A DNA stretch of 64,000 nt from Candidatus Omnitrophota bacterium. Its GTDB lineage: Bacteria; Omnitrophota; Gorgyraeia; Zapsychrales; Zapsychraceae. A model generated the notes under the pieces. It had not been told where the DNA came from, made no database searches, and worked only from the letters and a program-made list of their open reading frames with translations. This document shows, piece after piece, positions 3,633-64,000 of this stretch; the stretch's first letter is position 1; each line of letters starts with the position of its first letter. The DNA lies in assembly GCA_020429915.1 (NCBI GenBank), contig JAGQKV010000005.1:7125-71124 (forward strand), in the 5' to 3' direction. The translations under genes and the position numbers were made by a program.

Positions 3633-3772
3633 GAATTTCGAATATCGAATATCGAATATCGAAGGAATATCGAATTCTCGAATCATCAAATCACCGAAAT
3701 TAACGCTTTCGAAGATTCGGGCATTAGACGATTCGATATTCCTTCGAACATTCGAAGATTCGGATTTCGATA
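3633..3772. repeat. Intercistronic palindromic element, copy 2 (three tandem cgaatatcgaa units, then inverted arms)
   Basis: aatttcgaatatcgaatatcgaatatcgaaggaatatcgaattctcgaa ... gattcgatattccttcgaacattcgaagattcggatttcgatatt, lying between the atpA stop and the atpB start. Confidence 0.6.
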
Positions 3773-3773
3773 T

Positions 3774-6084: not shown

Positions 6085-6112
6085 GGTTTCGTTGGCTACA
6101 GAACCGCGCGCC

Positions 6113-6724: not shown

Positions 6725-6764
6725 CGTCGGCTCCCGAAATCATTTAATTGTTAATTCTTTAACG

Positions 6765-6792
6765 ATTATATGTAAAAGATTAATGTTCTTAA
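6765..6792 (-). promoter_or_regulatory. sigma70-like promoter of the V-ATPase operon
   Basis: On the minus strand, -35 TTAAGA (rc of 6787-6792), a 16-nt spacer and -10 TATAAT (rc of 6765-6770). A GGGAG RBS lies 8 nt upstream of the atpE ATG. The 75-bp spacer after pyrF is AT-rich. Confidence 0.45.
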
Positions 6793-6799
6793 TATACAC

Positions 6800-7555: not shown

Positions 7556-7556
7556 G

Positions 7557-8474
7557 TTATTTTCTTTTAACCTTTCCTCTTAATTTGCGGATGTCGTTGA
7601 TGTCGTGCCGCCGCATGTAATCGACGATCCCGTTGAGCACGTCCAGCGGCGCGCGCGGATTGACGAAATTCATAGTGCCCACGGCGACCATGGTTGCGCC
7701 GGCCAAAATAAACTGCAAGGCGTCAGAGGCATCGGCAATGCCGCCCATGGCGATAATCGGGATCTTCACCTTCTGCGCCGTCTGATACACCATATTCACG
7801 GCCACCGGCCGGATCGCCGGGCCGCTTAAACCCCCGGTAAAATTACCCAACACCGAACGCTGCTTTTCGACATCTATCACCATCCCGGTCAGCGTGTTGA
7901 TCAGGCTCAACCCGTCGGCACCGGCGTCTTCGGCCGCCTGAGCGATCACGGTGATGTCGGTGACGTTCGGCGCGAGCTTGGCGATGACCGGGACCGCGGC
8001 GATCTTCTTGACCTTTTTGATGATCCGCGCCGTGGCCTTGGGGTCCTGCGCCACCAGGGTCTTGTGGCCGAGGTTCGGGCACGACAGGTTCAACTCGAGC
8101 GCGACAAAACCGCCGGCCGCGGTGAACTTTTCGGCGAGGATTTCGAATTCTTTATCGGTGTGACCGAGCACGCTGATGATCAGCGGCACGCCGACCTTTT
8201 GAAAACCGGGCAGCTTGTCGGCGATAAAACCGTCGGCACCGGGATTCTCGATGCCGATCGCGTTGAGCATGCCCGACGGCGTCTCCACGATACGCACGGG
8301 CGGATTGCCTTCCTGCGCGGGCAGCGTGACCGTCTTCGGCACGATTGCGCCGAGCTTCTTGACCTCCTCAAGGTCGTAATACTTTTCCGCGTGACCGAAT
8401 GTCCCGGAGGCCACCGTCACCGGATTGGCGAAGGCGGCCTTGCCGATTTTGACTTTTAATTTGAGATCGTCCAT
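7557..8474 (-). CDS. pyrD: Dihydroorotate dehydrogenase catalytic subunit (class 1B)
   Basis: Homology begins at the internal Met MDDLKLKVKIGKAAFANPV.... The motifs are those of PyrD 1B (GTF, ELNLSCPN, IIAMGGI). The ORF continues upstream to 8657, but that extension overlaps tauE and looks non-coding. Confidence 0.85.
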   Translation of the reverse strand: MDDLKLKVKIGKAAFANPVTVASGTFGHAEKYYDLEEVKKLGAIVPKTVTLPAQEGNPPVRIVETPSGMLNAIGIENPGADGFIADKLPGFQKVGVPLIISVLGHTDKEFEILAEKFTAAGGFVALELNLSCPNLGHKTLVAQDPKATARIIKKVKKIAAVPVIAKLAPNVTDITVIAQAAEDAGADGLSLINTLTGMVIDVEKQRSVLGNFTGGLSGPAIRPVAVNMVYQTAQKVKIPIIAMGGIADASDALQFILAGATMVAVGTMNFVNPRAPLDVLNGIVDYMRRHDINDIRKLRGKVKRK

Positions 8475-52900: not shown

Positions 52901-55900
52901 GCGACTTCATCCAGCTTCCAGTATCCGACCAATCCGTCGTTGAGACTGACATTGTTAAAGACGGTGCCACCGGAGAAGTCGGGCGCTACGGAGGTCGTTC
53001 CAGCCCACACCCAAGTTCCGCCGTTATTAGTAAATGTCCCGCCGGTGTGGTTCATGGTTTCCGTCAGAACGTAATTGGTAGACGGCGCGGTGAAGGCCCC
53101 TGAAGAGATCGAGAGCTGACCGTCATGGCGGACGTCATTGGCCACCCCAGTGAAAGTCCCGCCATCCACGCTCAGACTTCCGGTCAGCAGAATCGGCAAT
53201 GGGCTGGTCGCGGTCGTCAGGGTTCCGGCGCTGATATTTCCTTCGTTATTGACGTCGATGGCGTCGTAGAGTGTCCACGTACCGCTGCCGGTTTGCTGCC
53301 ACGTGTCAAAGGCCATTGTGCCGGTTTGTATGACAAGCCCCGTCCCTGTTCCGTCCATGGTCACGGTATTGTTGTTCGTGGTGTATATACCGCCATTGTT
53401 CAACCAGCTCCCCGCGACATTGATGTTACGGTCGGATCCCGTATCGAGTTCCCCGGCATTGATAGACAGTGTTCCGTTGATGTCGAGATCATCCTGCAAC
53501 GTAAATGTTCCGGCCGCAACCTGCGGCAGGTGTCCGTTGGCCAGCCGGCGGATCTCGGCGTAAGACAGCGCCCGGTTGTAAACACGCGCCTCATCGATGT
53601 GTCCGTCCCAAAAATCATTAACTGTCGTAAAACAGCCCGCGTCCGAATCGGCTCCGATCAGCAACGGACATCCGGTAAAGCTCATCGCGACCCCGTCGGT
53701 TCCCGTCGAGGCATCAAGCACGCCGTTGATGTAGATTCTAATCGTGCTGCCCGACCGGGTCACTGCAACATGATTCCATGTGACACCGTCAGTGGTGATG
53801 GTTTGGGCAGATGTCACCCGTGAGACATTGTTGGTGTGGACAACTATCTGATTCGATGCGTTCGCCAGAATAACAAATTCGTTGTTACCGGAAGTGTCGG
53901 CATTCATGAAGATCATATCGTTGGCCGTGGCTGTATCGTGGATAACCCAAGCACTATAGGTAAAGTCTCCGGTAGGTGTATTGAACCCGGTGGCACGAAC
54001 ATATTCATTGGACCCGTTGAAATCCATACTCCGTAGACTGGTAAATCTTAACCGCGGTGGAACCACTGTGGATGGCGTGGGGGTGTTGATTTGCGTTCCA
54101 TCATATCCATACCCGCTAAAATCGTATGAGGTCGTACCGGATGTCTCATCGAATTTCCAGTATCCTGTCAAACCGTCATTCAGATACAGGTCGTTAAACG
54201 CATTGCCGTTAGACGTAATGGTCGCCGTCCCGCTAGAGGACATGATCACACTGCCCGTAGACGGAGTGAATGTTCCGCCGGTAGCATCCCAGTTCCCTCC
54301 GACCCGAATTTCACCGGCGGCCATGGTCAGCGTATCTTGAATGACCATATCATTGGAAACGGTCAGAATCTTGTCGTCGTCATTCGTCACGATCGCGTCG
54401 GCGATCGTCAGCGACCCATTGACAGTCAGATCGATATCCGGCAGCGTGAAGGTCGGATCGGACGTGCCTTCTTCGTCAAAGGTCAAATCATAGTAAGTGC
54501 TGAGCGTGGCATTGATGGTCACACTGGAGGTGCCGTCATACATGACCAAACCGGAATCGGAATCAAAGGTCCCGATTTCAAATCCTTCGGAGCCTTGCAT
54601 ACGCAAAGTCCCGTCATTGCTCAGAATTCCGTTGAGATCGAGCGTCTGGCCGTTGAGGTCCAACGTCGACCCGTTATTGATGGTCAACTGGGTGTCGACC
54701 TCCAGCTCGGTGTTGATCATCTGCAGGAAGCTGTTGTTGGTAATAACCAGGTTCGGAAAGTCGCGGGTGCTGTCATTAATAGCTGTACCCGTCCCGCCGG
54801 CGTCGATCGTCTGTACCGCACCGCCCTGGAAGGTGACAGTACCGACCATACCGAAGGATCCGGTATTCTCCCAGTTACCGTCGACTGAAATGGTGTAATT
54901 TGAGACATTCAACGTCCCCTCGATGTCCAGCGAATGCGTCTCGATGGCTCCCTGGCTGATATAAGTCTGATTCATCGGAACAAGCATTTCGATCCCCGAA
55001 CCGACCTGCAATGTATTTCCGGCGGTGACCGTGAAGATATCGGTGATATCGGTGTCGCCGTTGTCATCTCCATCGGCCATCAGCGTATTGGAATTGAAGC
55101 CCATGTTGTCGCTGCGCACGATGAGATATCCCGCGTATATGTCCACATTGGATATATCCTCATCCGAGGCGATAGTGACCGTCGCACCCTGGCTGGCTTC
55201 GTCATCGATATATAGCGTCAGCGTGTCCCCGGCATTCATCATCAACCCGGTCAAACTGTAAGTTCCGCTTCCGTCGGTATCATCGGTCGCGGCGGCGGCG
55301 GCTCCATCGATGGAGATGGCGACGGTAATGCCCGCCCCGATATTGGTCGATCCTTCGTCGGTGAATACCGTTCCGGAAATATTGACGGTCGGCGTGGTAA
55401 ACAACCATTCGGTGTTGTTGCCGGAATTCACACAGTTATTGGTACAATCGATTTCCGTGGCATTCACGTTCCAGGAATCGGTGACATCCAGATAAGAGAC
55501 GCTGCGCGTTCCCTGCGGATTAATTTCCCACTGAATGAGGCTGATTTCCGTTCCCCGCAGCGTCAGCAGCTGTCCGGCCGCGCCGTTCATGGTCATCGCG
55601 CCGGTAATGATCTGTCTTTCCATCGTTTCAAAGGTGAATGTGGCAGCCGTCGTAACGTTCTTGCGGAAATTGTTAAAGGTCGTCGAATCATAGATCGTCT
55701 GATCGCCGCCATCGAAGTCGATGGTTCCGGTCGCCGTATACGTACCGCCGGGACGCATCCAGTTTCCAGCCAGCAGGATGCTGTTACCGCCGTCGGCCAC
55801 GGTCCCACTTTCGATGGTGATCGTGCCGTTGACATCCATGTCGCTGCCGGCCGTCCACGTTCCGGAGCCGATGAATTCCAGATTGTAATATTCATCATCC

Positions 55901-58900
55901 AGCGCCCAATCCGAATATGTTCCGGACCCGTCGTAGCGGGTCAAACCGCTGTCGCTGTCCATATTGGTAATCGACACCGTCTGACCGCCTTCCAACCGGA
56001 TGACGTCGTCGTTGCTGACGGTGCCCGTCACGGTCAAGTCGTTGTCCACCAGATCGAACGTCCCGTTGACCACGAACAGATCGCCGCTGAGCGATTCATT
56101 GGCCGTTAAGTTGAAGTCTTCCCCGTACCCATTCTCGGTCAGATGATCACCGGCAGCCAGCTCGGCAATCTCGGTTGCGGATAGCGCCCGGCTGTAAATA
56201 CGGACATCGTCTATTTGACCATCGAAGTAATTGTTTTCAGATCCTGAACATGTTGCCCCGGACCAACCGGCAAATATATAATTGGCCCCGCCGCTGGCGG
56301 AGAATGTGGCTTGCGCCGTGCTGTCTTCCAACACACCATTGACGTAAACGGTCAGCCCGTTGACCGGATCCCATGTCGTGGCGATGTGATACCATTGACC
56401 CGCATTGAGCGTCGTCGTTCCATCCGCCTGAACAGCTCCCGGCGCCCAGCTGTGCGCCTCAATTTGGCTGCTATCCAAAGTGAGCATGGAAACACACCAT
56501 CCACCGGTTCCCGCCGACAATAAGGAGGCGTGGATAATGGTTCCGTCGGTTTCTCCCGAATCCCGGTTTATCCACGCCGATATCGTATACGGCTGATTGG
56601 ATGTTCCCAGTTCATTGAAACCGGCGGCCTTGGTGTAGTCGTCCGTACCGTCAAAATCAAAGCTGCGCGTATTGTTAAAGCTGGTTGTGGGCACACTGGC
56701 CGACGGTTGCGGATAGGTATTGGCCCCGCCGGTGCCGTAGGGGAACATGTGCCGGGCGTATTGAGAGCTGCTGTAGTTCATACCGCCGGACGTGGTTTCA
56801 TCATATTTCCAGTACCCCACCAGATGGTCGGAGGCGACACGCAGGTCATCGTATCCCCAGTCGTTGATAGTGTAGGGACCGGACGTCCCGTTGTACGACA
56901 CGGTTGATCCGCTGTTAAGCGTCGGGGCCGAAGATGTCTCGCCGCCTTCGAGCTGATACACCCCGCCGTCTTCAACGGTGAAGCTGTTGCCGCTAAAGCT
57001 CAGGTTGTTGCCGCTGATATCGAATGTCCCTTCAATGATCGTAAAGTCTTGACCGGCCGCGTCCAACGTGAGGGCCGATTGCAAGTGGACCGAACCCCCG
57101 GTCTTATTGACATCGATATCAATATTGATGCCGCCGGTGGCCCCGGAAAGATTAAATCCTTGGACCATGGCCCCGTCAAACAGCAGCGTCGCGCTTCCGC
57201 CGTAACCGGTATCCGTACTGACCACCATACCGCCGGCCGCGACGGTTCCGGAATTGATATTCCCGACCGTAGTCAAAGTCAGGGTGCCGTTGACGTCCAG
57301 CGTGCCGCTCACCGTCACATCGAGTGTGGCTGTATTGAAAGTCACGTTGGCAAACGATATCGTGCCCGAGGCGACGGTAAGCGCGTCCGTCCAGATGACC
57401 GTACTCGTGCCGGCGTCCACGTTGCCCGCGGTATAGGTCCACCCCCCGCCGTCGACATTGATATTGTCCTGGATCGTCAGCGTGCCGGAAGTCTTGTTGA
57501 TCTCAACGCCCGGCACCTCGCCCGTTGCGCCGTTGGCACTCAAGGTCTGCGCCCCGGTGCCGTCGAACAGGATCAGACTCGTTCCGCCCGCAGTGGTGTC
57601 CACCGTGATCACGTTACCGCTAATGGCGATCGGACCGGAGTTGATATCATTGACCGAATTGATCGTCAATGTCCCGGCAATATCCATCGTGCCGCTGACG
57701 GTCAGGTCACCCGCCGCACCGGTATTGATGTTGACATCGTTGAAGGTCATACTGCCGCCGGTCACGGTGGCCGTGGCAGTAAAGATCACCGTACTTGTGC
57801 CGGCATCCACGGTTCCCGCCATATAGGTCCAGCCGCCGGTATCGATATTGATATTGTCCTGAATCGTCAATGTGCCGGACGCCTTGTCGACTTCAAAGCC
57901 GGGCAGCTCCCCGGTCCCGCCGCCGGCACTGAGGGTCTGGGCGCCGGGGCCATCGGCGATGATCGTGCTTGTACCGCCGGCCGTGGTGTCGGTCGTGATG
58001 ATGTTTCCGGCCACCGTTACCGCACTGCTATTGATGTTGCTCACCGAGGTAATGCTCAACGTTCCGGCGACGTCCATCGTGCCGCTGACCGTAATGTTAT
58101 TTGTTCCGCCGGCCGCCACCGTAACGTCATTAAAGCTCATAGATCCGGCCGAAACCGTAGAGACATTAGTCAATACGACCGTACTTGTACCCGCGTCTAC
58201 CGTCCCCATGTTGTACGTCCAGCCGCCGGTGTCAATGTTAATGGTGTCCTGGATCGTCAACGTACCGCCGGATTTGTCGACAATGACCCCGGGCAGCTCC
58301 CCGGTCCCGCCGGCGGCATCGAGCACCTGCGCCCCGCCGCCGTCAAAGGCAATAAGACCATCCCCGCTGATGGTCGTGTCGGTGGTGGTCACGTTGGTGG
58401 CCACGGCAATGTCTCCGCCATTCAAATTCGCCAACAGCGTGATCGCAAGGTCACCTTCCACGTCCATTGTCCCGGTAATATTCAGATCATCTGCCGCCGC
58501 CTCCATGGTGATATCCACATCGTTGAACATCATCGCTCCGGAGTCGACCGTCGACGTATCGGTGAAGACGACTTTGCTGGTACCGGCATCCACCGTCCCC
58601 GCGGTGTAAGTCCAGCCGGCATCGTCGATATTAATGGTCCCCAGGATCGTCAAAGTACCCCCGCCTTTGTTGATGCTGACACCGGTCACCTCACCGGTTC
58701 CGCCGTTCGACGTTAATGACTGAGCCCCGCCGCCGTCGAAATACACCACGGCCGCCCCCGTGATGGCGGCATCGGTGGTCACGACATTTCCGGCAACGGC
58801 TAAAGTACCGGTGGTCATCACGGCCGTGTTGGTCAGCGTCAGCGTGCCGTTGATATCCATCGTTCCGCTGACATCGAATGTGTCATCGGTTTGGCTGACC

Positions 58901-61900
58901 GTTACGTCATTGAAGATCATCGCCCCCGAGGTCACCGTCTGTGTCCCGGTCGTGGCATCGAAGATCACCGTGGAGGTATTCGCGGTGAACGTACCTCCCG
59001 AGAAGGTCCAGTCGCCTTCGACATTGATGGTCGTGTCGCTGGCAATAAATGTGGCCCCTTCCTGGATATAGCCGTCCGCCCCCAGATCGACCGTAATGCC
59101 GGCTCCCTGCGTAATGGTTCCCGTATAGGAGGCGTCGATCAGTATCCCCAGAATGGTCACATTGGCATCGATGGTCGCGTCTTTGGAGCTGGTAATGTCG
59201 AAAATGGCGACATCCGTCGGAGAAGGCACGACATCTCCCAGCCAGTTTTGCGGTGTGCTCCAATTGTTGTCCGCGCCGCCGCCGTCCCAGATCACCCCGG
59301 AGCCGAAGAACCAGTTGGTGTTATTGCCGCTGTCGGTCGAACCGGTGGCCAAGACCACCCCGCCGCTGCTGGCATCGGAACGTTTGACGTCGACTTTGTC
59401 CTGGAGTTGTGAATTACCGGTGAGCGTCAACTCCCAGTCGACCGCGGCATCGGCCACACTGCGCAATATGGATTGCGTCCCGGAGGTGCCGTTACTGTCA
59501 AAAGTACCGTTGATCGTGATGCCGTTGCCGCCGCCGGTGGCGACTTCGTGAATCTTGCTGGCCCCGAGGATGACTGTTCCGAAAGACTGTCCGTAATCGG
59601 TGATCGTGGCGGTCACACCGGAATTGTAGAACTGAACGGTAGAGGTGACGGCATCGAAGCTCAGCGCGGCGGATGTCACCGTTTCGTTTCCATACAGACG
59701 GAACCCGTCATCCACGTCGATTTGGTCGGCGACCGCAAGGTTGAATCCGGCCAGGTCCAGGGTTCCCGCGGTGACCACAAAGTCCTCACTGGCTTCGACC
59801 GCGCTGAAGTCGAAGGCCAGGACCACGCTGCCCGAAACCTTGTTGACGGTGAAGCTGCCGTTCGTCCACGGATCACCAGCGATCCCCGTAATTGTCTGTG
59901 TGGCCGTACCGTCGAAGACAATGTTGGTGGTCCCGTCGACATCGGTGTCGACGGTGTTGGTCAGATCCCCGGCGAGGGTGACCACTCCGCCGTCCAGACC
60001 GCCGCTGCCCATTTGGACGATGGCCAGCTGACCGTTGATATCAAACGTGCCGGTGATGTCCAGGCCATCGGAGGTATCCGTGTTGATGGCCACATCATTG
60101 ACCGACATGGTTCCGGTATTAATCACACCGCCGTCGTTAAAGCTGACCGAACTGGCTGACCAGTCGGTTGTCCCCTGCACGTACTCCAGGAGAACCTGGG
60201 CGCCGTTGTTATTACCGCTGATATAGATATCATCCGTCACGGTCAGTGTTCCGGACGGCTTATTGATACGGATACCGGTCAGGGCCGCGTCGCCGCCGCT
60301 GCCGTTCATCGCCTGGGCTCCGGAGCCTTCGATCACAATTACGGTGGAACCGGTGACACTTGTATCCGTACTGACGACGTCGCCACTGACACCGATTTCT
60401 CCACCGAGCAGACTTGAAATTTGAGATATTGTCAGGTTATTGCCGATATTCAATGTGCCGGTGATCGTAACATCGTCGGCGACGCCCGCATTGAATATCA
60501 GATTATTGAGGACCACACTTCCGGCATCGATTGTCCCGCGGTCACGGATGCGGATTGTACTGGTACCGGCATCAACCGTTCCTTGAATATAATCAAAGAC
60601 AACCTTGGCTCCGTCATTGTTGCCGTAGATGTCGATTGTGTCACTGATGGTCAATGTGCCGGCCGACTTATCCACTATCAGTGACGGAAGCGCGCCAGTT
60701 CCCCCGCCGGCTCCCAAGGCCTGGGCCCCCGAACCGTCAAACACGAGGAATCCGGACCCGTCCACAGTGGCGTCGGTAGTGGTGACATCGCCGGCTACGG
60801 CCAGAGTTCCGGTTTCAATTAGATCCAGTTGGGTGAGCGTGAGGTTCCCGTTGATATCCACCGTTCCGGAGATCGTAATGTCGTCAGTCGTCTCATCCGT
60901 ATTGACGGTGACATTGTTGAACATCATGGTTCCCGAGGACACCGTGGCCGCGTCGGTCAGCACAACGGTACTTGTTCCGGAGTCGACCGTACCGGCAACA
61001 TAGTACCAGCCACGGTCGTTAATGTTGATCGTATCCGAAACGGTCAACGTGCCACCGGATTTATTGATCCGAATCCCGGGCAGCTCACCGGTGCCGCCGC
61101 TCGCGTTCAACGATTGGGCACCGACTCCGTCGACATAAATCGCGAAGGACCCTTCAACGGTCGTATCCGTAGTCACGATGTCTCCGCCGGCAGCGATGGT
61201 CCCGGTTGTAATCAGAGCTGTGTTTGATATCGTCAGGGCTCCGTTGACGTCCATCGTACCAGTGATGGCAAAGGTATCATCCGTCTGGCTGATGGTCACC
61301 GCGTTGAAGATACTGCTGCCCGCATTCACCGTCTGAGTCCCGGAGGTAGCGTCGAAGATCACGGTAGAACCGCCGCCGGTAAAGGTGCCGCCGCTGACCG
61401 ACCAATCGCCCTCAACATTAATATTCGCCGTCCCGCCGGTGAACGCCCCGCCCTGCTGGTCGAATCCGGAGGTTCCCAGATCCATATTACTACCCGCTCC
61501 TTGGGTGATGGTCCCGCTGTAGGAAGATTGTATCAGGATTCCGGCAATGGTCACCGACGCGTCCACCGTGGCGTCCTTGGTACTGGTGCCATTAAAGACC
61601 GCAATATCTCCGGCACCCGGAGTGGAGTCTCCGAGCCAATTTTGCGGGGTACTCCAGTTATTATCTCCCCCGCCACCGTCCCAAACGACCGCGCTGGAGA
61701 ACAGCCAATTGGTATTGTTTCCGCTGTCCGTCGATCCGCCCGCTATGACGAGCGTACCGGCCGAGGCATCGGACCGTTTGACATCGACCTTATCCTGGAG
61801 ATTGGAAACACCCTGCAGGTCTAACTCCCAGTCGACGGCCGCGTCCGCCACGCTGCGCAGGACTGACCGACTGGCCAGGCTGCCGTTGCTGTCGAAGGTA

Positions 61901-64000
61901 CCGTTGACGGTAATGCCGTTGCCGCCGCCGGTGGCGACTTCATGCACCTTGCCCGCACCGAGGGTCAGATTGTTAAAGGCCTGCGCGTAATTGGTAATCA
62001 CGGCGGTTACGGCATTATCGTAGAACTGAACGGTGGATGCCGCGGAGTCGATGGAAAACGTGGTCGCCGTAATTGTTTCATCCCCGTGCAGACGCAGGCC
62101 GGCATCGACATCGAACTGGTCGGCCACGGTCACGTCAAAGCCGGCCAAATCAAGCGTCCCGTTTGTAACCAACAGGTCCTGACTGGATTCATTCAGGACC
62201 AAGTCGGCAGCCAAAATCGCGGATCCCGCTGATTTGTCGATTGTCCAATCGGCATTCGGCCACGGATCCACGGCACCGCCGGTGGAGATCGTTTGATCGA
62301 CCGCTCCGTCCAGGATGATCGGAGTGGTTCCGTCAACCCCGTTGCTGTCGGTCGATGATATATCGCCGGCCACGGTGATCGCTCCGCCGTTCATATTCAC
62401 CACCAGCAGTATCGAGAGGTTTCCGTTGACGTCCATGGTCCCGGTTAAGTTCAGATCATTGGTGCTCGTATTGATTTCCACATTGTTGAACATCATATTC
62501 GCGTCGGCAATATGGACATCCGACTGATCGGTTTGGGTAAACCGAACCGTGCTCGTGCCGCCATCCACCGCCCCGGCAATATGCGTCCAGTCATAGGCCA
62601 CGTAGATCAAGCTGGACAGCGTCAGAGTTCCACCGGACTTATTGATGACCACATTCGGGATTTGACCGCCTCCGGCAACCCCCTGGAGCTGTTGGGCGCC
62701 CGCTCCGTCCAGCAAGAGATAAACGTCCTCCAATTGCGTGTACGCGGTATCGACCAAACTTACGTCGCCAGCGACGGCCAGCGTTCCGCTGCCGGACCAG
62801 GTATTCAACGTGGTCAGCGTAAAGTTCCCGTTAATATCCAGTGTTCCGGAAGTGGTCAGCGCGGCGGTACTCTTGTTCAGGGTGAGATTGTTAAAGGCCA
62901 TCGATCCTGACGGAGCTATCGTAATCGTTGAGGCTGCGACCGGTCCGAACGTCACCGAGCTCGTGCCGCCGGCAACGGTTCCCGCGATGTAATCCCAGTC
63001 GCGGTCAATGTTCATGGCCCCCAACAGCGTCAACGTGCCTCCCGACTTATTGATCCGTATCGACGTAAAGTCCCGCGTCGCGCCGGTCACCGCCTCAAGA
63101 TTTTGATTGCCGCTGCCGTCCAGAAGAATCACGGACGTCCCGGTCACCGCCGTATCGCTGTTAACCACGTTCCCGGCCACCGCCAGCACACCGCCGTTCA
63201 TGGCCCCCATGGACGTAATCGTCAGCTGCCCATTGATGTCCATGGTTCCGCTCAGCGTCAGGTTTTGCGCTCCCGTCACCAAGGTGACATTATTAAACTG
63301 CATCGAGCCGGAGGCCAGCGTCACTGTGTGGCCGGTGGTATTGTTAAACTGCACCGTGCTACTGCCCGCGGCGACGGTCCCCGCTGTATACGTCCAGTTA
63401 CGGTCGATCGACATATTTCCCAGCAATGTGAGGGTTCCCGCGGACTTGTTAATGCTGATCGACGTAAAATTGCGGGTCGCTCCGGTGACCGCCTCCAGAT
63501 TTTGATCACCGGTTCCGTCGAGCAGAATAACCGACGTCCCGTTTATCGCGGTATCGCTGTTGCGGACATTACCGGCCACCAAATAATTTCCGGAATTCAT
63601 GTTGGCCGCGGAGACGATACTGAGCGTCCCGTTGATGTCCATATTTCCCGTCAAGGTCACGTCACCGCCGCCATCGATATTGACGTCGTTAAACACAGCG
63701 CTTCCGGTATTGAGCGCCTTGGCCCCGGCCGTCTGGAAGGTGACCGATCCTGTCCCGGCGTCAAGTGTCCCGCTGGTGACCGTCAGATTGGAATCGATGC
63801 CCAGGTCATTGGCCCCGATGGACAGCGTCCCGCCGGCAACGGTCACACTCTCGGCGTCTTGGTCGCCGGTCAGGGTGACCGCATGAGAGTCAACGGTGAC
63901 GTCATCGTCGGCGTCCGGAATAACGGCACAATCCCACGTCCCGGCGTTATTCCAGTCGCCGTCGGCCTGATCATTACAGGCCAGCGCCCAGGCGGAACCG
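37909..64000 (-). CDS. Giant mosaic repeat protein (>8,690 aa in-window; N-terminus off-window): beta-helix-like repeats, NNW modules, 9 LamG_3 domains, Cna-B-like domain, Gly-rich super-repeats
   Basis: One continuous minus-strand frame runs from the stop at 37909-37911 to the window edge. The track gives 8,645 aa from a GTG, and the frame stays open for the remaining codons up to 64000. The repeat composition is strongly periodic, as detailed in the sub-features. Confidence 0.9.
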   Translation of the reverse strand, partial: GSAWALACNDQADGDWNNAGTWDCAVIPDADDDVTVDSHAVTLTGDQDAESVTVAGGTLSIGANDLGIDSNLTVTSGTLDAGTGSVTFQTAGAKALNTGSAVFNDVNIDGGGDVTLTGNMDINGTLSIVSAANMNSGNYLVAGNVRNSDTAINGTSVILLDGTGDQNLEAVTGATRNFTSISINKSAGTLTLLGNMSIDRNWTYTAGTVAAGSSTVQFNNTTGHTVTLASGSMQFNNVTLVTGAQNLTLSGTMDINGQLTITSMGAMNGGVLAVAGNVVNSDTAVTGTSVILLDGSGNQNLEAVTGATRDFTSIRINKSGGTLTLLGAMNIDRDWDYIAGTVAGGTSSVTFGPVAASTITIAPSGSMAFNNLTLNKSTAALTTSGTLDINGNFTLTTLNTWSGSGTLAVAGDVSLVDTAYTQLEDVYLLLDGAGAQQLQGVAGGGQIPNVVINKSGGTLTLSSLIYVAYDWTHIAGAVDGGTSTVRFTQTDQSDVHIADANMMFNNVEINTSTNDLNLTGTMDVNGNLSILLVVNMNGGAITVAGDISSTDSNGVDGTTPIILDGAVDQTISTGGAVDPWPNADWTIDKSAGSAILAADLVLNESSQDLLVTNGTLDLAGFDVTVADQFDVDAGLRLHGDETITATTFSIDSAASTVQFYDNAVTAVITNYAQAFNNLTLGAGKVHEVATGGGNGITVNGTFDSNGSLASRSVLRSVADAAVDWELDLQGVSNLQDKVDVKRSDASAGTLVIAGGSTDSGNNTNWLFSSAVVWDGGGGDNNWSTPQNWLGDSTPGAGDIAVFNGTSTKDATVDASVTIAGILIQSSYSGTITQGAGSNMDLGTSGFDQQGGAFTGGTANINVEGDWSVSGGTFTGGGSTVIFDATSGTQTVNAGSSIFNAVTISQTDDTFAITGTMDVNGALTISNTALITTGTIAAGGDIVTTDTTVEGSFAIYVDGVGAQSLNASGGTGELPGIRINKSGGTLTVSDTININDRGWYYVAGTVDSGTSTVVLTDAATVSSGTMMFNNVTVNTDETTDDITISGTVDINGNLTLTQLDLIETGTLAVAGDVTTTDATVDGSGFLVFDGSGAQALGAGGGTGALPSLIVDKSAGTLTISDTIDIYGNNDGAKVVFDYIQGTVDAGTSTIRIRDRGTIDAGSVVLNNLIFNAGVADDVTITGTLNIGNNLTISQISSLLGGEIGVSGDVVSTDTSVTGSTVIVIEGSGAQAMNGSGGDAALTGIRINKPSGTLTVTDDIYISGNNNGAQVLLEYVQGTTDWSASSVSFNDGGVINTGTMSVNDVAINTDTSDGLDITGTFDINGQLAIVQMGSGGLDGGVVTLAGDLTNTVDTDVDGTTNIVFDGTATQTITGIAGDPWTNGSFTVNKVSGSVVLAFDFSAVEASEDFVVTAGTLDLAGFNLAVADQIDVDDGFRLYGNETVTSAALSFDAVTSTVQFYNSGVTATITDYGQSFGTVILGASKIHEVATGGGNGITINGTFDSNGTSGTQSILRSVADAAVDWELTLTGNSQLQDKVDVKRSDASSGGVVLATGSTDSGNNTNWFFGSGVIWDGGGADNNWSTPQNWLGDVVPSPTDVAIFDITSSKDATIDANVTILGILIDASYTGTITQGAGITVDLGADGYIQEGATFIASDTTINVEGDWTFSGGTFTANTSTVIFDATTGTQTVTSGAMIFNDVTVSQTDDTFDVSGTMDINGTLTLTNTAVMTTGTLAVAGNVVTTDAAITGAAVVYFDGGGAQSLTSNGGTGEVTGVSINKGGGTLTILGTINIDDAGWTYTAGTVDAGTSKVVFTDTSTVDSGAMMFNDVDITMEAAADDLNITGTMDVEGDLAITLLANLNGGDIAVATNVTTTDTTISGDGLIAFDGGGAQVLDAAGGTGELPGVIVDKSGGTLTIQDTINIDTGGWTYNMGTVDAGTSTVVLTNVSTVSAGSMSFNDVTVAAGGTNNITVSGTMDVAGTLSITSVSNINSSAVTVAGNIITTDTTAGGTSTIIADGPGAQTLSAGGGTGELPGFEVDKASGTLTIQDNINIDTGGWTYMAGTVDAGTSTVIFTATATVTGGSMTFNDVNINTGAAGDLTVSGTMDIAGTLTINSVNDINSGPIAISGNVITVDTTAGGTSLILFDGTGAQTLSANGATGEVPGVEINKTSGTLTIQDNINVDGGGWTYTAGNVDAGTSTVIWTDALTVASGTISFANVTFNTATLDVTVSGTLDVNGTLTLTTVGNINSGTVAAGGMVVSTDTGYGGSATLLFDGAMVQGFNLSGATGGINIDIDVNKTGGSVHLQSALTLDAAGQDFTIIEGTFDISGNNLSFSGNSFTVEDGGVYQLEGGETSSAPTLNSGSTVSYNGTSGPYTINDWGYDDLRVASDHLVGYWKYDETTSGGMNYSSSQYARHMFPYGTGGANTYPQPSASVPTTSFNNTRSFDFDGTDDYTKAAGFNELGTSNQPYTISAWINRDSGETDGTIIHASLLSAGTGGWCVSMLTLDSSQIEAHSWAPGAVQADGTTTLNAGQWYHIATTWDPVNGLTVYVNGVLEDSTAQATFSASGGANYIFAGWSGATCSGSENNYFDGQIDDVRIYSRALSATEIAELAAGDHLTENGYGEDFNLTANESLSGDLFVVNGTFDLVDNDLTVTGTVSNDDVIRLEGGQTVSITNMDSDSGLTRYDGSGTYSDWALDDEYYNLEFIGSGTWTAGSDMDVNGTITIESGTVADGGNSILLAGNWMRPGGTYTATGTIDFDGGDQTIYDSTTFNNFRKNVTTAATFTFETMERQIITGAMTMNGAAGQLLTLRGTEISLIQWEINPQGTRSVSYLDVTDSWNVNATEIDCTNNCVNSGNNTEWLFTTPTVNISGTVFTDEGSTNIGAGITVAISIDGAAAAATDDTDGSGTYSLTGLMMNAGDTLTLYIDDEASQGATVTIASDEDISNVDIYAGYLIVRSDNMGFNSNTLMADGDDNGDTDITDIFTVTAGNTLQVGSGIEMLVPMNQTYISQGAIETHSLDIEGTLNVSNYTISVDGNWENTGSFGMVGTVTFQGGAVQTIDAGGTGTAINDSTRDFPNLVITNNSFLQMINTELEVDTQLTINNGSTLDLNGQTLDLNGILSNDGTLRMQGSEGFEIGTFDSDSGLVMYDGTSSVTINATLSTYYDLTFDEEGTSDPTFTLPDIDLTVNGSLTIADAIVTNDDDKILTVSNDMVIQDTLTMAAGEIRVGGNWDATGGTFTPSTGSVIMSSSGTATITSNGNAFNDLYLNDGLTGYWKFDETSGTTSYDFSGYGYDGTQINTPTPSTVVPPRLRFTSLRSMDFNGSNEYVRATGFNTPTGDFTYSAWVIHDTATANDMIFMNADTSGNNEFVILANASNQIVVHTNNVSRVTSAQTITTDGVTWNHVAVTRSGSTIRIYINGVLDASTGTDGVAMSFTGCPLLIGADSDAGCFTTVNDFWDGHIDEARVYNRALSYAEIRRLANGHLPQVAAGTFTLQDDLDINGTLSINAGELDTGSDRNINVAGSWLNNGGIYTTNNNTVTMDGTGTGLVIQTGTMAFDTWQQTGSGTWTLYDAIDVNNEGNISAGTLTTATSPLPILLTGSLSVDGGTFTGVANDVRHDGQLSISSGAFTAPSTNYVLTETMNHTGGTFTNNGGTWVWAGTTSVAPDFSGGTVFNNVSLNDGLVGYWKLDEVAATALDSSGYGNHGTTANIAADASVPGAISFTDPLAYAFNGTTSTVNVGDPSGGELDFGVNEYFTISVWVKGSDTTNAQKVVDKRSTNGYQIRYTSGGGFFLRIDETSAITDTATSATVMDGAWHHIAAGRTPTHHFIIVDGTTVDITEDSSVEDISVTDDFAIGCNSASCTSGAWNGSIDDVRIYNRVLSMEEIQALAAGAQDPVSGRWTMAQTLDVDGGLLLSKTLDLNANNLDLEGSFDTDGTFIAQGDETISILTPQAIGGLAIYDGAVTSTLTADITGYYRLTFDNAGGTWTFPDTAVTVTSTMTIANGTAITDDDKQLTLDDVDINDTFTMQSGDVKVGGLWDATGGTFTSTGTLIFTSTENETITSNGSSFNDVIFNDGLVGYWRFEESAGNTCSGGVDDSCDLTKNGYDGFWSSSPTPTTTVAENIGYDNRRSIFLDGTDYIAIRDLNYDQVGQLEAVTACAWIRTTDTDGAIIDFDRSEYFSLSINFTSCANGEVQWSVADSGATVNDQCSASAVNDDQWHHVCGVYDATVTNDSIIYIDGVAESSNAFALGTALGTGTTRYGFIGDGSEASTFNSSTNAVYFGGYIDEVRLYHRALSAAEIRLLAAGTMPGSALGTYTLQDNLDVNGTLQFYSGALDTGADRDVNVGGSWLNYGGAFVANSGNVIFDGAGTGSLILSGSQTFYDAEINGAGTWTLQDNFPITTIFDSRDGVLTYSDDTNIEPVTIEGTYRITTGGGAGTFTGTANRFRHAGNLLIQAGTYTAPTDVLEITGSFVHSAGTFTHSTSTVMFTGTVTGGQIDTSAGTSFHNVIINDGLVGYWKMTESVSPSFDYSGYDNDCTWINSPTASTEVPEVSFTDPGSLDFDNADGDYLNCGATDSLAITDTITIMAWIYIDGAADPEEIIVTRSNSTGNQTNWRFMASTYNGGAGGNWGFRTDATSAEIQASTALSAGQWYHVAVTYDRTTVRFYLNGMPDGSGADADTLGTNYDVKIGRGIGGAQEHFDGRIDEVRIYNRVLSAAEIAAVTNSGQVATQTGIYTLQTDLDINGTLTLNSGELDIGDNRSINVAGSWFNHGGTFDEKTGAVTFDVQSGTVTVQETQTFYHVTVDDSPGGAGTVQQYSPLDINGTLTIAAGTLDASSNNHTINLAGGWDNSDTFLAQTGTVTLDGTLQAISGTTSFYNLSKNETTDDGTDSVLTFEAGTVFTVDGTLTLQGLDNDDRINLVSSSPGTRFTLDVTDADQRARFIDVTDSQTSSNDIIARRSLDTSNNDTDELTPHWIISPGDIYEWTSNGDGATWTDQANWDFGDASPGNDGYPDDNFDEALVLISADDITTPAGTLTLASFEMSSDFTGSVTLTGTLVADDAMGLSGNVTIATGTLTHPDNSNTETSKVVIQADGYLVVASGAQINVDALGYDMSFGPGAPVSMDNGGGYGGIGGDHSRDGTESTTYGSLFAPVNIGSGGVNSFGDGSGGGAVILTVAGTVTVDGTITAGGEGGRTSGSGGSIFITADNLQGSGALAANGGSNLPASDRAGGGGGRIAVILTGAGADFSAFNVAGTLQAHGGEATADYEDGAAGTIYLEAPDVASGQGTLIIDNNDLTVTGTVVTLMPTAVNLNNFEDIVIRNRGYLGVDADDTLTFGTANLTTEGKNDAFITIIDDTLVTFPNPYTLTGYTLNGDGLSSITGDWTITDGVLSHSQNATAETWLLNMTLAGDLVINADGAVDVSEKGYTSGYGPGSPVIAENGGAYGGRGGDHDDDGATSSTYGSITAPVNFGSGGSINTFGYAHGGGAIILNVSGTTTVNGTMAADGAFGDADGSGAGGSIYLTTGFLTGTGAFSADGGGGTNSRGGGGGGRIAVILTGASADFSAFDVTGTMHAYGGPQWAANGAGAAGTLYRQTEAQGTGNGILIIDNNGQDTASAGNVITALDDEDVNITTVVGSLVILNNADFTIGSDDELTVGGTLTTLTIDVTGSLVNEGTLNLGGSVFSVADLTDISFSTTGSDVVYIGQDDDAGVSILDRVYYNLRADNAGTTFTNTAALDINGSFNLDDGFFVQGNNNMNVAGNFTLASGTTFTKPTGSGTLTFDGDLYFADNTSPLQDLGRLVIGSSPDTTTLTTDMSATTLTVDTGDALITDGYEVDIAGTVTINGTLNATSGTDAATTITLGGPWDSSGGIFTESVSTVIFDGTTGTATITMGSNSFYNLTVNDGNAGGDYTVRTVSDLYINGSLAVADGTFDADGYELTIGSNVDINGTLDIGSGTDGAVTAVVGGNWDATGGVFTATDSTVLFTGTSASATITSNANAFNNVTLNDGLVGYWKLDEAAADTCSGGTNDACDSSGYGYDGAWGGNATADTNVAETITFTNPRSVTFDGTGDSINMGDVLDQTTSFSVSFWMYAQDIATAGRRIVIKDNGSNGWAVSLGDPGAGALRFFIRSVSTVSTDTAAVITANRWYHVAAVFDDAANTKRIYVNGTQEALSSSVTGTPIDGPSFLGIGGGGSGNSFQGEIDEVRIYNRALSAAEVRAMANGYQPATSAGTYTLQDDLDINGTLTINSGELDTGSDRDITIADSWMNNGGKFTANNGDVLFDGGPSVGLILSGSQTFYNVDVTTSGTWSLQDNAPVSNVFDISAGVLTYSTDTTIEPVAIVGNTTLTGGTFTGNARRFRHDGDLTISSGQYTAPTDVLEIDGTFTHSGGTFTNSSSTVMFTGTDNHGIDVTGGAVFDDVIVNDGLIGYWKLDEASGSTSIDSSGYGNHGTWQGTPAATSSVSSAIQFRDPQALDFGATTDYVLIPRSRELSDLTELTLAAWVRVDGAPGTGWGRIIHKSDGGTADDYALIHRASTLAMIFRIHVGGAQVQITGNPVTTADGWVHVAGTWNGSSVRLYQDGTLTAGPTAASGALTDSIEPLAIGRHENSNTRDFDGAIDEVRIYNRALSSTEIAALAAGSTPAAAVGAYTLQADLDVDGTLIINSGELDAGANRAIDVGGFWLNHGGVFDEQSGSVTMDAQSGTVGVQELQTFYNLIVDDTPGGGTTFELYSALDVNNDLTIAGGDLDVSAANYDINLAGNWINNDTFTAQSGTFALDGTTQSLVGSTTFYNLSKVETTNNATDSVITLEAGSTFAVQNNLTVAGIDSDDRVNLVSSVPGTRWNLDVQLGDERVMWLDVSDGEALSNDILAANSIDNSNNDSMEAAPHFVFSFGSIYEWTGASDQATWEDELNWDFGDGSAGDDGYPDDATDKAFFMSSGHIIDTPSGTLTIGEIETQTGFTGTIVLTGTMEVDDSTGLSGDAFFVTGTLRHLDNSTAETNRFIMLVDGDFNLGSLAMIDVSGLGYDTNQGPGQPAGSRVGGAYGGSGGDYNMGGEANTSVYGSITAPVNIGSGGGIIATGSSGGGAVILEVAGTATIDGTIAADGVDGSDGSGSGGSIFITAGQLTGTGTLTANGGSGITGRGSGGGGRIAAVLTASGADFMSWTGTMNAFGGKSTDGQHEDGAAGTVYLETEAVIAGGGTLIIDNDGADAYAEVTTLMPTSVNLDSFAEIVIRNNGHLAIGADDTYDFTNDTITGSGASESYVTIIDDTLVTFPAAYTISNYTLHPDGVSAVTGHWTVASGGRLSHTMNREAETYTLNLTITGSLTVQSGGEINVDYMGYESSFGPGVPTTARDGGSYGGCGGDHSPKTNTCTTYGSITAPVNIGSGTLDDSGMHELGSGGGAIILTVTGTTTLEGTMSAVGEENLDFTAAAGSGGSIYLTTGYLTGAGAFDADGGDGSAQGRAGGGGGRIAVILTGTSADLMSFTGTMHAYGGIGIATDYGAAGTVYTETAVQGSGNGILTVDNQNRDADTANGVVTTLDDEDANITTVVGSLLVDNGGYFVMGADDQLTIGGTLATLTVNSGATFVNEGTLYLGGEGFTALGTVNFATTGNIVEYTGRDDDNTIPVLGAVYYNVNFDNDGTIFRTFVDLDVNGTFNLQAGTFDQNSSDLNVAGNFILDAGTVFLKSDAGTLTFDGDLTYADNTSPQQDVGWIVVGQSPDMTTLTTNLTGTSMKIMSTDALVTDGYDVFLSGTMDINGTLNAASGSGGRTVIAVGGIWDMTGGVFTSTGSSVVLTGTTGSLTVTADTKSFNDLAINNGLVGYWKLDESASPAVDYSGYGHDGTWVNDVSVNVSVNGTINFNNPGAAELDGNNDYIEIADSDVLDLDTAAGITIAAWIYPDTWGQSVQGRIVDKGGGLNDEGGWVFHISDLNSGGQPNEGLVLQLEGSSTNYTFSSNDQVVDLGEWQHVAVVWEDATDVATFYVNGRAAGSDTQAGSSIDAYTDTVRIGMRASDLNRDFDGRIDEVRVYSRALSAAEIARIADGYMPGTGLGTYTLQDNLDVNGSLSINDGTLDTGADRQINVALSWLNNGGIFAPNSGIVVFDSSAPDNEILSGSQTFYAVDIAAGNPNGGWVLQDDIPVTNGLDISLGSLTYADSTIIEPVAVIGDTTVTGGRFTGTTNRFRHDGNLTITTGVYTASSDTTELDASFDHAGGTFTHSSGAVMFTGTGTETIDSTGGTIFNDLIINDGLIGYWNLDETAEDSNSVCNAAATFDDACDLSGYGNHGEWAGTPTSSTDISGSIAFADAASLEFDGSSDYVAIDDNPVFDFDISHDYSWSLWFLTQDLTANGGWPTLWSQTAGGNNYFYFYTHTVSSGDLPGGSVTDGISVWFYTQGANRIVTEAESVVTEDVWTHVVVTYDASQSAANRFSIYVNGTDVTGGSSTGGTVTDIPVTDVRIGSNASFPTELFDGLIDDVRMYNRLLSTAEIQALANGNMPATAVGTYTLQTALDVNGTLRLNAGTLDVSAGNDYQINVGGNWENFGGVFAARSGTVVLDGADQEIPASETFYSLDKTLSAGPARTLTVGQQSTLTVAGTLTLDGFNGSNRLNIRSSTTGTRFTVDVTGAEQNVGFVNVRDSQASSNNIVTGNSVDAGNTDRPEAEPHWIFGPLRGAVIIVD
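38461..39201 (-). other. LamG_3 domain 9 (res ~8216-8462), Cys-containing variant
   Basis: GLIGYWNLDETAEDSNSVCNAAATFDDACD ... WTHVVVTYD ... FDGLIDDVRMYNRLLSTAEIQAL. The following unit is 430 aa, the same as unit 8. Confidence 0.75.
39814..40491 (-). other. LamG_3 domain 8 (res ~7786-8010)
   Basis: GLVGYWKLDESASPA ... WQHVAVVWE ... FDGRIDEVRVYSRALSAAEIARI. It is followed by a 430-aa unit. Confidence 0.75.
40492..44679 (-). repeat. Super-repeat B (~1,396 aa; res 6390-7785), paralogous to super-repeat A
   Basis: It has the same module order as A. The Gly-rich modules lie at about 42367-42876 and 41413-41928 (GGAYGGSGGDY...GGGAVILEVAG...GSGGGGRIAAVLT and GGSYGGCGGDH...GGGAIILTVTG...GGGGGRIAVILTG). 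Confidence 0.7.
44002..44679 (-). other. LamG_3 domain 7 (res ~6390-6615); begins super-repeat B
   Basis: GLIGYWKLDEASGST ... WVHVAGTWN ... FDGAIDEVRIYNRALSSTEIAAL. Confidence 0.75.
45277..45933 (-). other. LamG_3 domain 6 (res ~5972-6190), Cys-containing variant
   Basis: GLVGYWKLDEAAADTCSGGTNDACD ... WYHVAAVFD ... FQGEIDEVRIYNRALSAAEVRAM. Confidence 0.75.
45934..50433 (-). repeat. Super-repeat A (~1,500 aa; res 4472-5971): LamG + beta-helix cap + two Gly-rich modules + beta-helix
   Basis: It is homologous along its length to super-repeat B (for example TPHWIISPGDIYEWTSNGDGATWTDQANWDFGD vs APHFVFSFGSIYEWTGASDQATWEDELNWDFGD, and GYDMSFGPGAPVSMDNGGGYGGIGGDH vs GYDTNQGPGQPAGSRVGGAYGGSGGDY). 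The Gly-rich modules lie at about 48130-48633 and 47170-47685. Confidence 0.7.
49792..50433 (-). other. LamG_3 domain 5 (res ~4472-4685); begins super-repeat A
   Basis: GLVGYWKMTESVSPS ... WYHVAVTYD ... FDGRIDEVRIYNRVLSAAEIAAV. Confidence 0.75.
51052..51747 (-). other. LamG_3 domain 4 (res ~4034-4265), Cys-containing variant
   Basis: GLVGYWRFEESAGNTCSGGVDDSCD ... WHHVCGVYD ... FGGYIDEVRLYHRALSAAEIRLL. Confidence 0.75.
52297..52935 (-). other. LamG_3 domain 3 (res ~3638-3850)
   Basis: GLVGYWKLDEVAATA ... WHHIAAGRT ... NGSIDDVRIYNRVLSMEEIQAL. Confidence 0.75.
53542..54174 (-). other. LamG_3 domain 2 (res ~3225-3435)
   Basis: GLTGYWKFDETSGTT ... WNHVAVTRSG ... FWDGHIDEARVYNRALSYAEIRRL. Confidence 0.75.
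55114..55395 (-). other. Cna-B-type / carboxypeptidase-regulatory-like (prealbumin fold) domain candidate (res ~2818-2911)
   Basis: TVNISGTVFTDEGSTNIGAGITVAISIDG...DGSGTYSLTGL..GDTLTLYI...YAGYLIV, the typical G-x-V-x-D...G-x-Y-x-[LF] pattern. Confidence 0.5.
56137..56826 (-). other. LamG_3 (concanavalin A-like lectin) domain 1 (res ~2341-2570)
   Basis: HLVGYWKYDE ... WYHIATTWD ... FDGQIDDVRIYSRALSATEIAEL. Confidence 0.75.
59077..59889 (-). repeat. 'NNW' module 2 (res ~1320-1590)
   Basis: ...GGGNGITINGTFDSNG...VDWELTLTG...KVDVKRSDASSGG...NTNWFFGSGVIWDGGGADNNWSTPQNWLGDVVPSPTDVAIFDIT.... Confidence 0.6.
61477..62289 (-). repeat. 'NNW' module 1 (giant protein res ~520-790)
   Basis: ...GGGNGITVNGTFDSNG...VDWELDLQG...KVDVKRSDAS...NTNWLFSSAVVWDGGGGDNNWSTPQNWLGDSTPGAGDIAVFNGT.... 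It is about 70% identical to module 2. The NW...NW...P..D.A.F pattern resembles the openings of autotransporter-associated beta-strand repeat regions. Confidence 0.6.

Follow-up and report, generated by a model that had tools for sequence, protein, structure and literature searches.

We analyzed a 64,000-nucleotide stretch of a Candidatus Omnitrophota genome (GenBank assembly GCA_020429915.1, contig JAGQKV010000005.1, positions 7,125–71,124; hereafter 'the window'), in which a preliminary description had flagged positions 56,827–64,000 as encoding tandem beta-helix-like repeats in the style of an autotransporter passenger. In the reading that we favor, and to which we assign a probability of roughly 60%, the flagged region makes up the N-terminal third of a secreted beta-solenoid fiber protein of 8,723 amino acids that does not span a membrane, is exported through Sec and a step resembling the type II secretion system (T2SS), and serves in adhesion. 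Members of the Omnitrophota have not been cultured, are mostly ultra-small and are believed to live attached to other cells; their giant genes, although noted repeatedly in the literature, are almost unannotated. The gene adds one more case to the giant adhesin-like genes known from this phylum and is not a new kind of system; what is new here is a corrected repeat period, a reading of the protein as cassettes and joints, a recovered signal peptide, a lead towards a T2SS, and a conserved partner gene for a protein with four tandem helix-turn-helix domains (HTHx4).

The gene occupies positions 37909–63999 of the window on the minus strand, in a single frame that is unbroken from the window edge to the stop codon at 37909–37911 (8,696 codons plus the stop; in-window residue n, the numbering used throughout, corresponds to nucleotide 63999−3(n−1)). 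It runs on for 27 codons, which encode the signal peptide, making an open reading frame (ORF) of 26.2 kb overall. We rejected the GTG start called at 63846 as a window-edge artifact of ORF calling, because the frame stays open as far as the window edge and has no start codon between 63846 and that edge; the 51 codons upstream of this GTG read as ordinary protein sequence, and the true ATG lies 81 nucleotides beyond the window end. An exact search with 91 nucleotides from the window end found no match in genome or metagenome contig collections, and a degenerate search with residues 1–400 matched 254 and 217 patterns in the two contig collections, none of which was confirmed. The missing N terminus was found through P0122, a 485-residue fragment identified with HMMER among 1.84 billion cluster representatives, which is 100% identical to in-window residues 1–441 and carries 27 residues in front of them. 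Its contig, L005, aligns to the reverse complement of the window end with 99.986% identity over 7,311 nucleotides and a single indel, which places it in the same organism or in a near-identical strain. The ATG of the giant gene is at L005:995, which gives the full length of 8,723 residues.

The protein begins with MKKLLLTIWNDVLRSLLVAVIATGLFAGSAWA, followed after the predicted cleavage site by LACNDQADGDWNNAGTWDC (mature start LA). In the N-terminal peptide the n-region is basic, the hydrophobic core spans 12 residues with a mean hydropathy of 2.6, and an A-x-A motif (AWA) precedes the cleavage site; from these features we read the peptide as a Sec/SPase I signal peptide with a W-rich head directly after it. 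An export signal, which the preliminary description had suggested looking for once the N terminus was recovered, is thus present and of the Sec type. A close strain (L006) has the same protein start and the same layout of repeats, described below. Relative to the window, the L005 contig, which is from Logan, has a 1-nucleotide indel at L005:2422-2452 that splits the gene into calls of 485 and 1,987 residues, and other assemblies break within the gene, as in L001, where it is cut at 6,610 residues at the contig start. Because of these breaks and the indel, public protein sets contain the giant gene as fragments only; our search for homologous proteins returned matches of at most ~1,750 residues and did not retrieve the giant protein itself.

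When we used one repeat unit as a phmmer query against the whole protein, we found 13 copies (independent E-values 4e-10 to 8e-60) starting at residues 73, 202, 335 and 471, at 866, 997, 1136 and 1273, and at 1664, 1795, 1926, 2056 and 2186, that is, grouped 4+4+5 within the first ~2,320 residues. Aligned units are 26–65% identical in pairs (mean 42%), and each contains once W-T-Y-x-A-G-T-V-D-A-G-T-S-T-V, F-N-[ND]-V, GTMD[IV]NG.L[TS][IL], AVAG[ND]V, GGTGELPG and INKSGGTLT. The tandem repeats noticed in the preliminary description are therefore real, and the five motifs that it quoted are all present in the units. Its period of ~105 residues is too short: anchor-to-anchor spacings measure 130, 130, 131, 132, 132, 133, 136, 136 and 136 residues, for a period of about 131.

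The array also contains two so-called NNW modules (residues 571–841 and 1371–1641), which had been taken as interruptions of it. Both exist as described and are 65.8% identical over 269 residues, making them more conserved than whole cassettes (44–47%). However, our mapping of tails and heads, in this protein and in its relatives, shows that an NNW module is not an insert but a joint, at which the C-terminal tail of a cassette passes into the W-rich head that opens the following one. Behind the signal peptide, the window opens within a divergent head (head 0, 63793–63999, residues 1–69; this and the following features are all on the minus strand), whose W-rich N-cap, W..C.DQADGDWNNAGTWDC..IPDADDDVTV, starts straight after the cleavage site. 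Units 1–4 (62191–63792, residues 70–603, period about 131–136) lead into an end region and tail 1 (61699–62190, residues 604–767), which ends ...VDVKRSDAS..STDSGNNTNWLF and supplies the first half of NNW module 1; the second half is head 1 (61405–61698, residues 768–865), with the sequence VWDGGGGDNNWSTPQNWLGD..P..DIAVF ... YSGTITQ. Next come units 5–8 (59794–61404, residues 866–1402), the end region and tail 2 (59305–59793, residues 1403–1565; first half of NNW module 2), head 2 (59011–59304, residues 1566–1663; second half of the module) and units 9–13 (57040–59010, residues 1664–2320), after which the end region of cassette 3 (56824–57039, residues 2321–2392) runs up to the first Laminin_G_3 (LamG) domain at residue 2393.

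Each of cassettes 1–3 comprises a head, four, four or five copies of the ~131-residue unit, respectively, an end region and a tail. The whole protein contains six tail modules, ending near residues 767, 1565, 2867, 4985, 6905 and 8684 and sharing the motif ...LRS..G..W.L.L.G.S.L...VDV.DS.AS......A.GS.DSGNN.NW.F, which implies six cassettes. Tails 1 and 2 are directly followed by the W-rich head V.WDGGG.DNNWSTPQNWLGD..P...D[IV]A[IV]F...Y[ST]GTITQ and tails 4 and 5 by a variant head, YEWT......W.D..NWDFGD; cassettes 5 and 6 form a tandem duplication of ~1,900 residues (53% identical).

Relatives of the protein were found in 1,158 of the cluster representatives at E ≤ 1e-3, 636 at ≤ 1e-10 and 224 at ≤ 1e-30, with source names that include Omnitrophota, Bacteroidota, Oligoflexia, Bdellovibrionia, Fibrobacteres and Kiritimatiellota. 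We built hidden Markov models (HMMs) of the head, unit and tail from the giant protein and mapped them on 255 relatives, detecting units in 254 (1,367 copies), heads in 219 and tails in 81. In 161 of the 203 relatives that start with Met, the beginning of the first head falls among residues 1–60, i.e., just behind a signal peptide, and in 25 of the 81 that have a tail, the last tail ends at most 30 residues from the C terminus. Tail-to-head junctions number 43, spread over 26 relatives, and such joints are present in P0069, P0111 and P0114. Read directly, the Omnitrophota proteins P0010 and P0018 consist of a signal peptide, head, two to three units, tail and LamG, and the Bacteroidota proteins P0031, P0033 and P0063 of a signal peptide, head, units and a domain of the type IX secretion system (T9SS). 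Export devices in the family include a T9SS C-terminal domain (in 38 of the 120 relatives listed), a two-partner secretion (TPS) domain, tags made of a Cys, a transmembrane segment and basic residues (at the ends of the large relatives P0121, P0124 and P0129), and possibly a C-terminal barrel. Judged by sequence, the giant protein fits this head–unit–tail cassette family (W-rich head, ~131-residue units, ...DSGNN.NW.F tail), which is defined here and has no name.

We predicted the structures of a cassette and of a joint with AlphaFold2. The model of cassette 2 (residues 768–1567, from a 35-row alignment) is all-beta, with a predicted local distance difference test (pLDDT) score of 85.8 (>90 for its residues 1–600) and a predicted template modeling (pTM) score of 0.79, and is built of many strands of 3–5 residues, with long strand pairs (203–220/223–239 and 475–493/502–520) at some unit borders; the tail was poorly modeled in this run. 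The model of joint 2 (residues 1270–1795, from an alignment of homologous joints) is likewise all-beta (pLDDT 85.8, pTM 0.74), with a pLDDT of 80–92 for the tail and about 90 for the joint itself (model residues 281–310). Neither model had a significant Foldseek match in the PDB (best E-values 0.24, to RsaA, and 0.015, to IgA1 protease), and a phmmer search of PDB sequences found no match. The weak Foldseek hits, nearly all of them beta-helices or beta-solenoids, include Ag43, Hap, EspP, Hbp, HxuA, pertactin, EtpA, Fap2, VacA, tapirins, ice-binding proteins, PL6 lyases, tailspikes, Amnionless (6gje_A, probability 0.14) and FwdC. From these models we conclude that the predicted fold class is a beta-solenoid rod without a close solved relative. 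At the ~22 residues and 4.8 Å per coil that are usual for beta-helices, the N-terminal repeat region would form a rod several tens of nanometers long; this length, like the coil count per unit, is an estimate.

Known sequence families gave little further purchase. We scanned the whole protein against Pfam at E ≤ 0.01, and rescanned residues 1–2391, which contain the three N-terminal cassettes, and the C terminus at E ≤ 10. In residues 1–2391, Pfam and NCBIfam yielded nothing meaningful at that threshold, and no TIGR02601/PATR, Chlam_PMP, Beta_helix, Autotransporter or TPS model matched, so that the HMM check proposed in the preliminary description (TIGR02601, PF02415, PF13229 and PF03797) came back empty. 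What survives of the likeness to an autotransporter passenger is the all-beta prediction, the weak solenoid and passenger neighbors, and the lack of a barrel; the attribution to TIGR02601-like repeats does not, as neither TIGR02601 nor PF12951 (PATR) matched the N-terminal cassettes. It also remains correct that the Chlamydia Pmp rule is not obeyed, there being no PF02415 hit and the unit motif being F-N-[ND]-V. Two pairs of Gly-rich segments further along the protein (47050–48702 and 41320–42942, residues ~5100–5650 and ~7020–7560; motifs GGGAVILTV, GSGGSIFIT and GGGGRIAVILTG) look more Pmp-like, in the sense of GGA[ILV], than the flagged region; they have no Pfam match at E ≤ 0.01. FwdC, itself a beta-helix, is among the marginal Pfam/NCBIfam matches of residues 1–2391, and the Amnionless N terminus (PF14828) weakly matches the W-rich head (E 0.064 to 7e-4; head 1 and P0048). 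A match of DUF1416 (PF07210) to 44 residues of unit 1 (63463–63594, residues 136–179) exceeded its gathering threshold (30.2 versus 23 bits) but probably reflects a local beta-strand resemblance, and we set it aside.

Beyond residue 2393 (window 37909–56823) the protein contains nine Laminin_G_3 domains detected by Pfam, each opening with ...FN[ND]V..NDGL[VI]GYWK[LF]DE and closing with DGxIDEVR[IV]YNRALS..EI. We rejected the NCBIfam model TafC, a haloarchaeal Tat-fimbria subunit, which covers only this LamG part and scored 186 bits against a cut-off of 410. Over the whole protein, the highest Kyte–Doolittle value of any 19-residue window is 1.47, which indicates that there is no transmembrane segment; the estimated isoelectric point (pI) is about 4, the protein is very acidic in composition, with abundant Gly, Thr, Asp and Ser, and the cysteines number 24, an even count. 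Such a composition would also suit a structural coat or S-layer-like sheet that stays attached around the cell, like the 'velamen' proposed for Velamenicoccus, instead of a projecting adhesin fiber. RsaA, an S-layer protein of Caulobacter that tops the Foldseek hits of the cassette model, points the same way, as does the published proposal that giant Omnitrophota ORFs form coats (PMC10066038). We nevertheless regard a coat as unlikely, given that the RsaA match is not significant, that no transmembrane segment, SLH domain or other anchor was found, and that nine lectin-like LamG domains suit ligand binding better than lattice formation.

The C terminus of the protein (...PHWIFGPLRGAVIIVD) consists of the last tail and an 11-residue end, GPLRGAVIIVD (together 37912–38166 on the minus strand, residues 8612–8696). 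When the last 400 and 183 residues were compared with Pfam and NCBIfam at E ≤ 10, only Laminin_G_3 matched, and there was no barrel, T9SS or PEP-CTERM domain. The preliminary description had seen no barrel, LPXTG motif, PEP-CTERM signal or T9SS C-terminal domain here, and this holds; the match of the C-terminal 180 residues to a sorting domain or barrel that it had named as decisive for the secretion route does not appear. We also found no NCBIfam hit to a PEP-CTERM-, LPXTG- or MYXO-CTERM-type signal and no hydrophobic C-terminal segment, and with neither a sorting domain nor a signal in place we discarded T9SS cargo and PEP-CTERM or LPXTG proteins as candidates. Within the last 200 residues, positions 24–191 share 46% and 43% identity with internal residues 4823–4990 and 6743–6907, which are cassette ends with heads after them, and because of this paralogy the C-terminal region is not a barrel or an anchor. 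Only the final GPLRGAVIIVD (37912–37944) is unique to it. Six relatives (P0035, P0137, P0139, P0150, P0170 and P0215) end in a tail, a Gly-rich spacer and then [LI][LI]xSx[IV]I[QKR]G, a pattern that we defined after seeing those sequences; this end, and GPLRGAVIIVD in the giant protein, may be a short C-terminal tag. Nine short fragments were all that a profile of this tail plus tag recovered.

These observations bear on the possibility that the protein is a type V passenger, i.e., an autotransporter or a TpsA-like exoprotein whose barrel or TpsB partner is encoded elsewhere. The fold class and the Foldseek neighbors Ag43, Hap, EspP, Hbp, IgA1 protease and EtpA would fit, and within the family a TPS domain lies at the start of some relatives, recognized by Pfam (PF05860) in P0069 and P0114 and by eye in P0125 and P0216, and one relative, P0187, has a barrel-like end (...GWFLRVQGGW). 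We consider it very improbable for the giant protein itself, whose mature N terminus is a head without a TPS domain, and whose last 200 residues resemble internal segments that cannot be membrane barrels. A classical autotransporter (T5aSS) would share its signal peptide and beta-helical passenger, but the C-terminal 12-strand barrel (PF03797), like any other barrel, is missing at E ≤ 10; for a TpsA protein (T5bSS), PF05860 does not follow the signal peptide and no TpsB gene is adjacent, with no TpsB/Omp85-family gene in the 8.5 kb upstream (in L006) or the 37.9 kb downstream.

The cassette layout raises the further possibility of a polyprotein, a giant precursor that is cut at the tail-to-head joints into six cassette proteins after export. 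Each cassette does resemble a complete stand-alone relative, with a head behind a signal peptide and a tail at the C terminus, and proteolytic processing of Omnitrophota giant proteins has been raised as possible (West-Roberts et al., 10.1101/2023.11.21.568195). Yet the joint is modeled as confident, continuous beta structure and not as a flexible linker, and neither the protein nor its neighborhood yielded a protease domain; we hold this scenario to be very improbable. An enzymatic solenoid, i.e., a pectate-lyase or PL6-like polysaccharide-degrading beta-helix, is the least credible reading, since the Foldseek hits that suggest it (PL6 alginate lyases, chondroitinase B and phage tailspike depolymerases) all have E > 0.1 and TM-scores of 0.1–0.25, Pfam gave no match to a lyase, hydrolase or Beta_helix model, the right-handed beta-helix/pectate-lyase superfamily (PF13229) has neither an HMM nor a significant structural match, and thirteen near-identical units leave no obvious unique catalytic groove.

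With respect to export, two relatives provide a lead. P0018 and P0010 are encoded inside T2SS-like clusters in two genomes (L013:800-15238 and L014:469-16076), where a secretin (GspD, carrying an STN domain) is followed in turn by GspF, pseudopilins, extracytoplasmic function (ECF) sigma factor, anti-sigma factor, cassette protein, GspE and PilZ-T2SSE, with the start of the cassette gene abutting the end of the anti-sigma gene. T2SS- or type IV pilus-like loci have also been reported to generally precede Omnitrophota giant genes (West-Roberts et al., 10.1101/2023.11.21.568195). On the basis of these two observations we propose, with moderate confidence and by analogy, that the giant protein is exported via Sec and then a T2SS-like step. 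The earlier verdict that the secretion route is not evident can thus be narrowed by the Sec signal peptide, the lack of a TPS domain and the homologues in a T2SS context, although it still holds that there is no barrel or known sorting tag.

Our favored reading, that of a secreted adhesion fiber, can then be set out as a series of steps. The protein would be exported by Sec and fold in the periplasm, its units and joints being predicted to form one continuous, all-beta, solenoid-like rod, and it would cross the outer membrane through a T2SS-like secretin encoded elsewhere in the genome. Outside, it would act as a long, acidic adhesion fiber or coat element, whose nine lectin-like LamG domains may bind glycans on partner or prey cells. 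Its expression is probably under the control of the co-transcribed four-domain HTH_17 protein, acting on three upstream 42-nucleotide repeats.

Several points weigh against this reading. There is no secretion gene in the 37.9 kb of the window downstream of the giant gene or in the 8.5 kb upstream of it in the close strain L006, and the link of the giant protein to a T2SS comes from homologues and the literature. The P0010 and P0018 loci are orthologous and so amount to one evolutionary observation, and no T2SS lies near two further relatives, P0100 and P0054. To our knowledge, there is no precedent for a folded 8,700-residue protein passing through a secretin. The adhesin role is drawn from domain types only, the signal-peptide call was made by inspection and hydropathy and not with SignalP, and the judgment that the rod is continuous draws only on secondary structure, pLDDT and pTM.

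The candidate regulator is encoded directly upstream of the giant gene, outside the window (L005:276-998), as a 240-residue protein with four tandem HTH_17 domains, and its stop codon overlaps the ATG of the giant gene (ATGA); P0273 is a 94%-identical relative of this protein. Upstream of its gene lie three 42-nucleotide direct repeats (L005:73-260), 74–100% identical and built from TTAACATATGTTAA-type palindromes, which are candidate operators for the HTHx4 protein. Homologues of HTHx4 are numerous in Omnitrophota, and in four loci (L006:8510-9232, L008:527-1222, L009:10001-10693 and L010:6001-6720) the homologue is immediately followed by a gene whose product has 1,876 to >4,000 residues. 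The large proteins of L006, L008 and L009, the three covered by our HMM check, share the units, tails and heads. The pairing is ambiguous in L011, and L012 differs. In the distant loci L009 (8567-9793) and L011 (4594-5829), the gene directly preceding that for HTHx4 encodes a GAF-GAF-ANTAR protein, in the place of glpD here.

The giant gene is flanked by glpD/HTHx4 on one side and carA on the other. The carA and pyrG proteins belong to clusters at ≥90% identity that also contain proteins named Candidatus Omnitrophota at NCBI. In L006, the upstream 8.5 kb encode TPR, DUF3592 and AIM24 proteins, GlpK, GlpD and HTHx4, and the genes downstream in the window include carA, carB, purF, pyrG, rpe, a FIST protein gene, pyr genes, fpg, glmS and genes for DsbA-like, DacA and BacA proteins. 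The rest of the window (1494–6724 and 6800–37734) is of a housekeeping character, with subunits D, B, A and E of a V/A-type ATPase, an almost complete pyrimidine set (pyrF, pyrD/K, pyrC, pyrB, pyrR, carAB and pyrG) and a histidine kinase with a response-regulator–GGDEF pair.

Cassettes delimited by tail-to-head joints provide a reading rule for giant proteins of this sort, and the head, unit and tail provide seed definitions for three domain families that have no Pfam or NCBIfam model, through which at least 1,158 protein clusters would gain annotation. The T2SS offers a testable export route, and HTHx4 with its operator repeats a candidate for dedicated regulation. More speculatively, and we advance this only as a tentative suggestion, the cassette could be an autonomous, widespread and unnamed beta-solenoid export module that different phyla couple to different outer-membrane routes (T9SS, TPS or Cys-transmembrane tags) and Omnitrophota to a T2SS-like machine. 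In that case, giant fibers of concatenated cassettes and their translationally coupled, dedicated HTHx4 regulator would constitute a conserved, undescribed operon for attachment to partner or prey cells.

Among known systems, the closest are the giant ORFs of the phylum itself. LamG domains have been described in giant ORFs of Omnitrophia (Seymour et al., 2023; PMC10066038), and our gene resembles the reported ones in phylum, in length (>20 kb, here 26.2 kb) and in its Laminin_G_3 domains, as well as in stretches without domains that only structure prediction resolves and in a proposed role in cell–cell adhesion (PMC10066038; 10.1101/2023.11.21.568195). The full-length giants described by West-Roberts et al. 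(10.1101/2023.11.21.568195) all have transmembrane regions, which are numerous, and most have SecA domains, of a divergent DEAD type, with C39 and S8 domains also described, whereas the present protein lacks transmembrane helices, SecA_DEAD, C39 and S8, has no adjoining T2SS-like locus within the range examined, and is shorter (8.7 versus >30 thousand residues); without transmembrane helices or a SecA domain, it is not a membrane-embedded giant of the 'Archaeovorin' type. The repeat region is truly related to that of Bacteroidota T9SS cargo (P0031, P0033 and P0063; E 1e-39 to 1e-59, 28–31% identity), which shares the layout of signal peptide, W-rich head and ~130-residue units but ends in a PF18962 sorting domain; the giant protein has neither PF18962 nor TIGR04183.

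Type V passengers (Ag43, Hap, pertactin and Hbp; the TpsA proteins FHA and EtpA) are alike in having a Sec signal peptide, a long beta-solenoid and an adhesin role, which for our protein is a proposed one. They differ in that the giant protein has no translocator barrel, TPS domain, nearby partner gene or sequence-family match, and in that each of its ~131-residue units contains many short strands, with long strand pairs at unit borders. TIGR02601/PATR repeats are likewise Gly/Thr/Asn-rich beta-strand repeats of very large surface proteins in PVC-group bacteria, and PATR proteins often open with a W...NW...P...D motif that resembles the head described here; the giant protein has no HMM match to them at E ≤ 10, and its period is 131 residues compared with about 30. 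The nearest counterparts of its plan are P0010 and P0018, which have the same order of signal peptide, head, unit, tail and LamG and are 40–47% identical to it in matching stretches, but which comprise a single cassette of 1,300–1,500 residues encoded between anti-sigma and GspE genes, where the giant protein comprises six.

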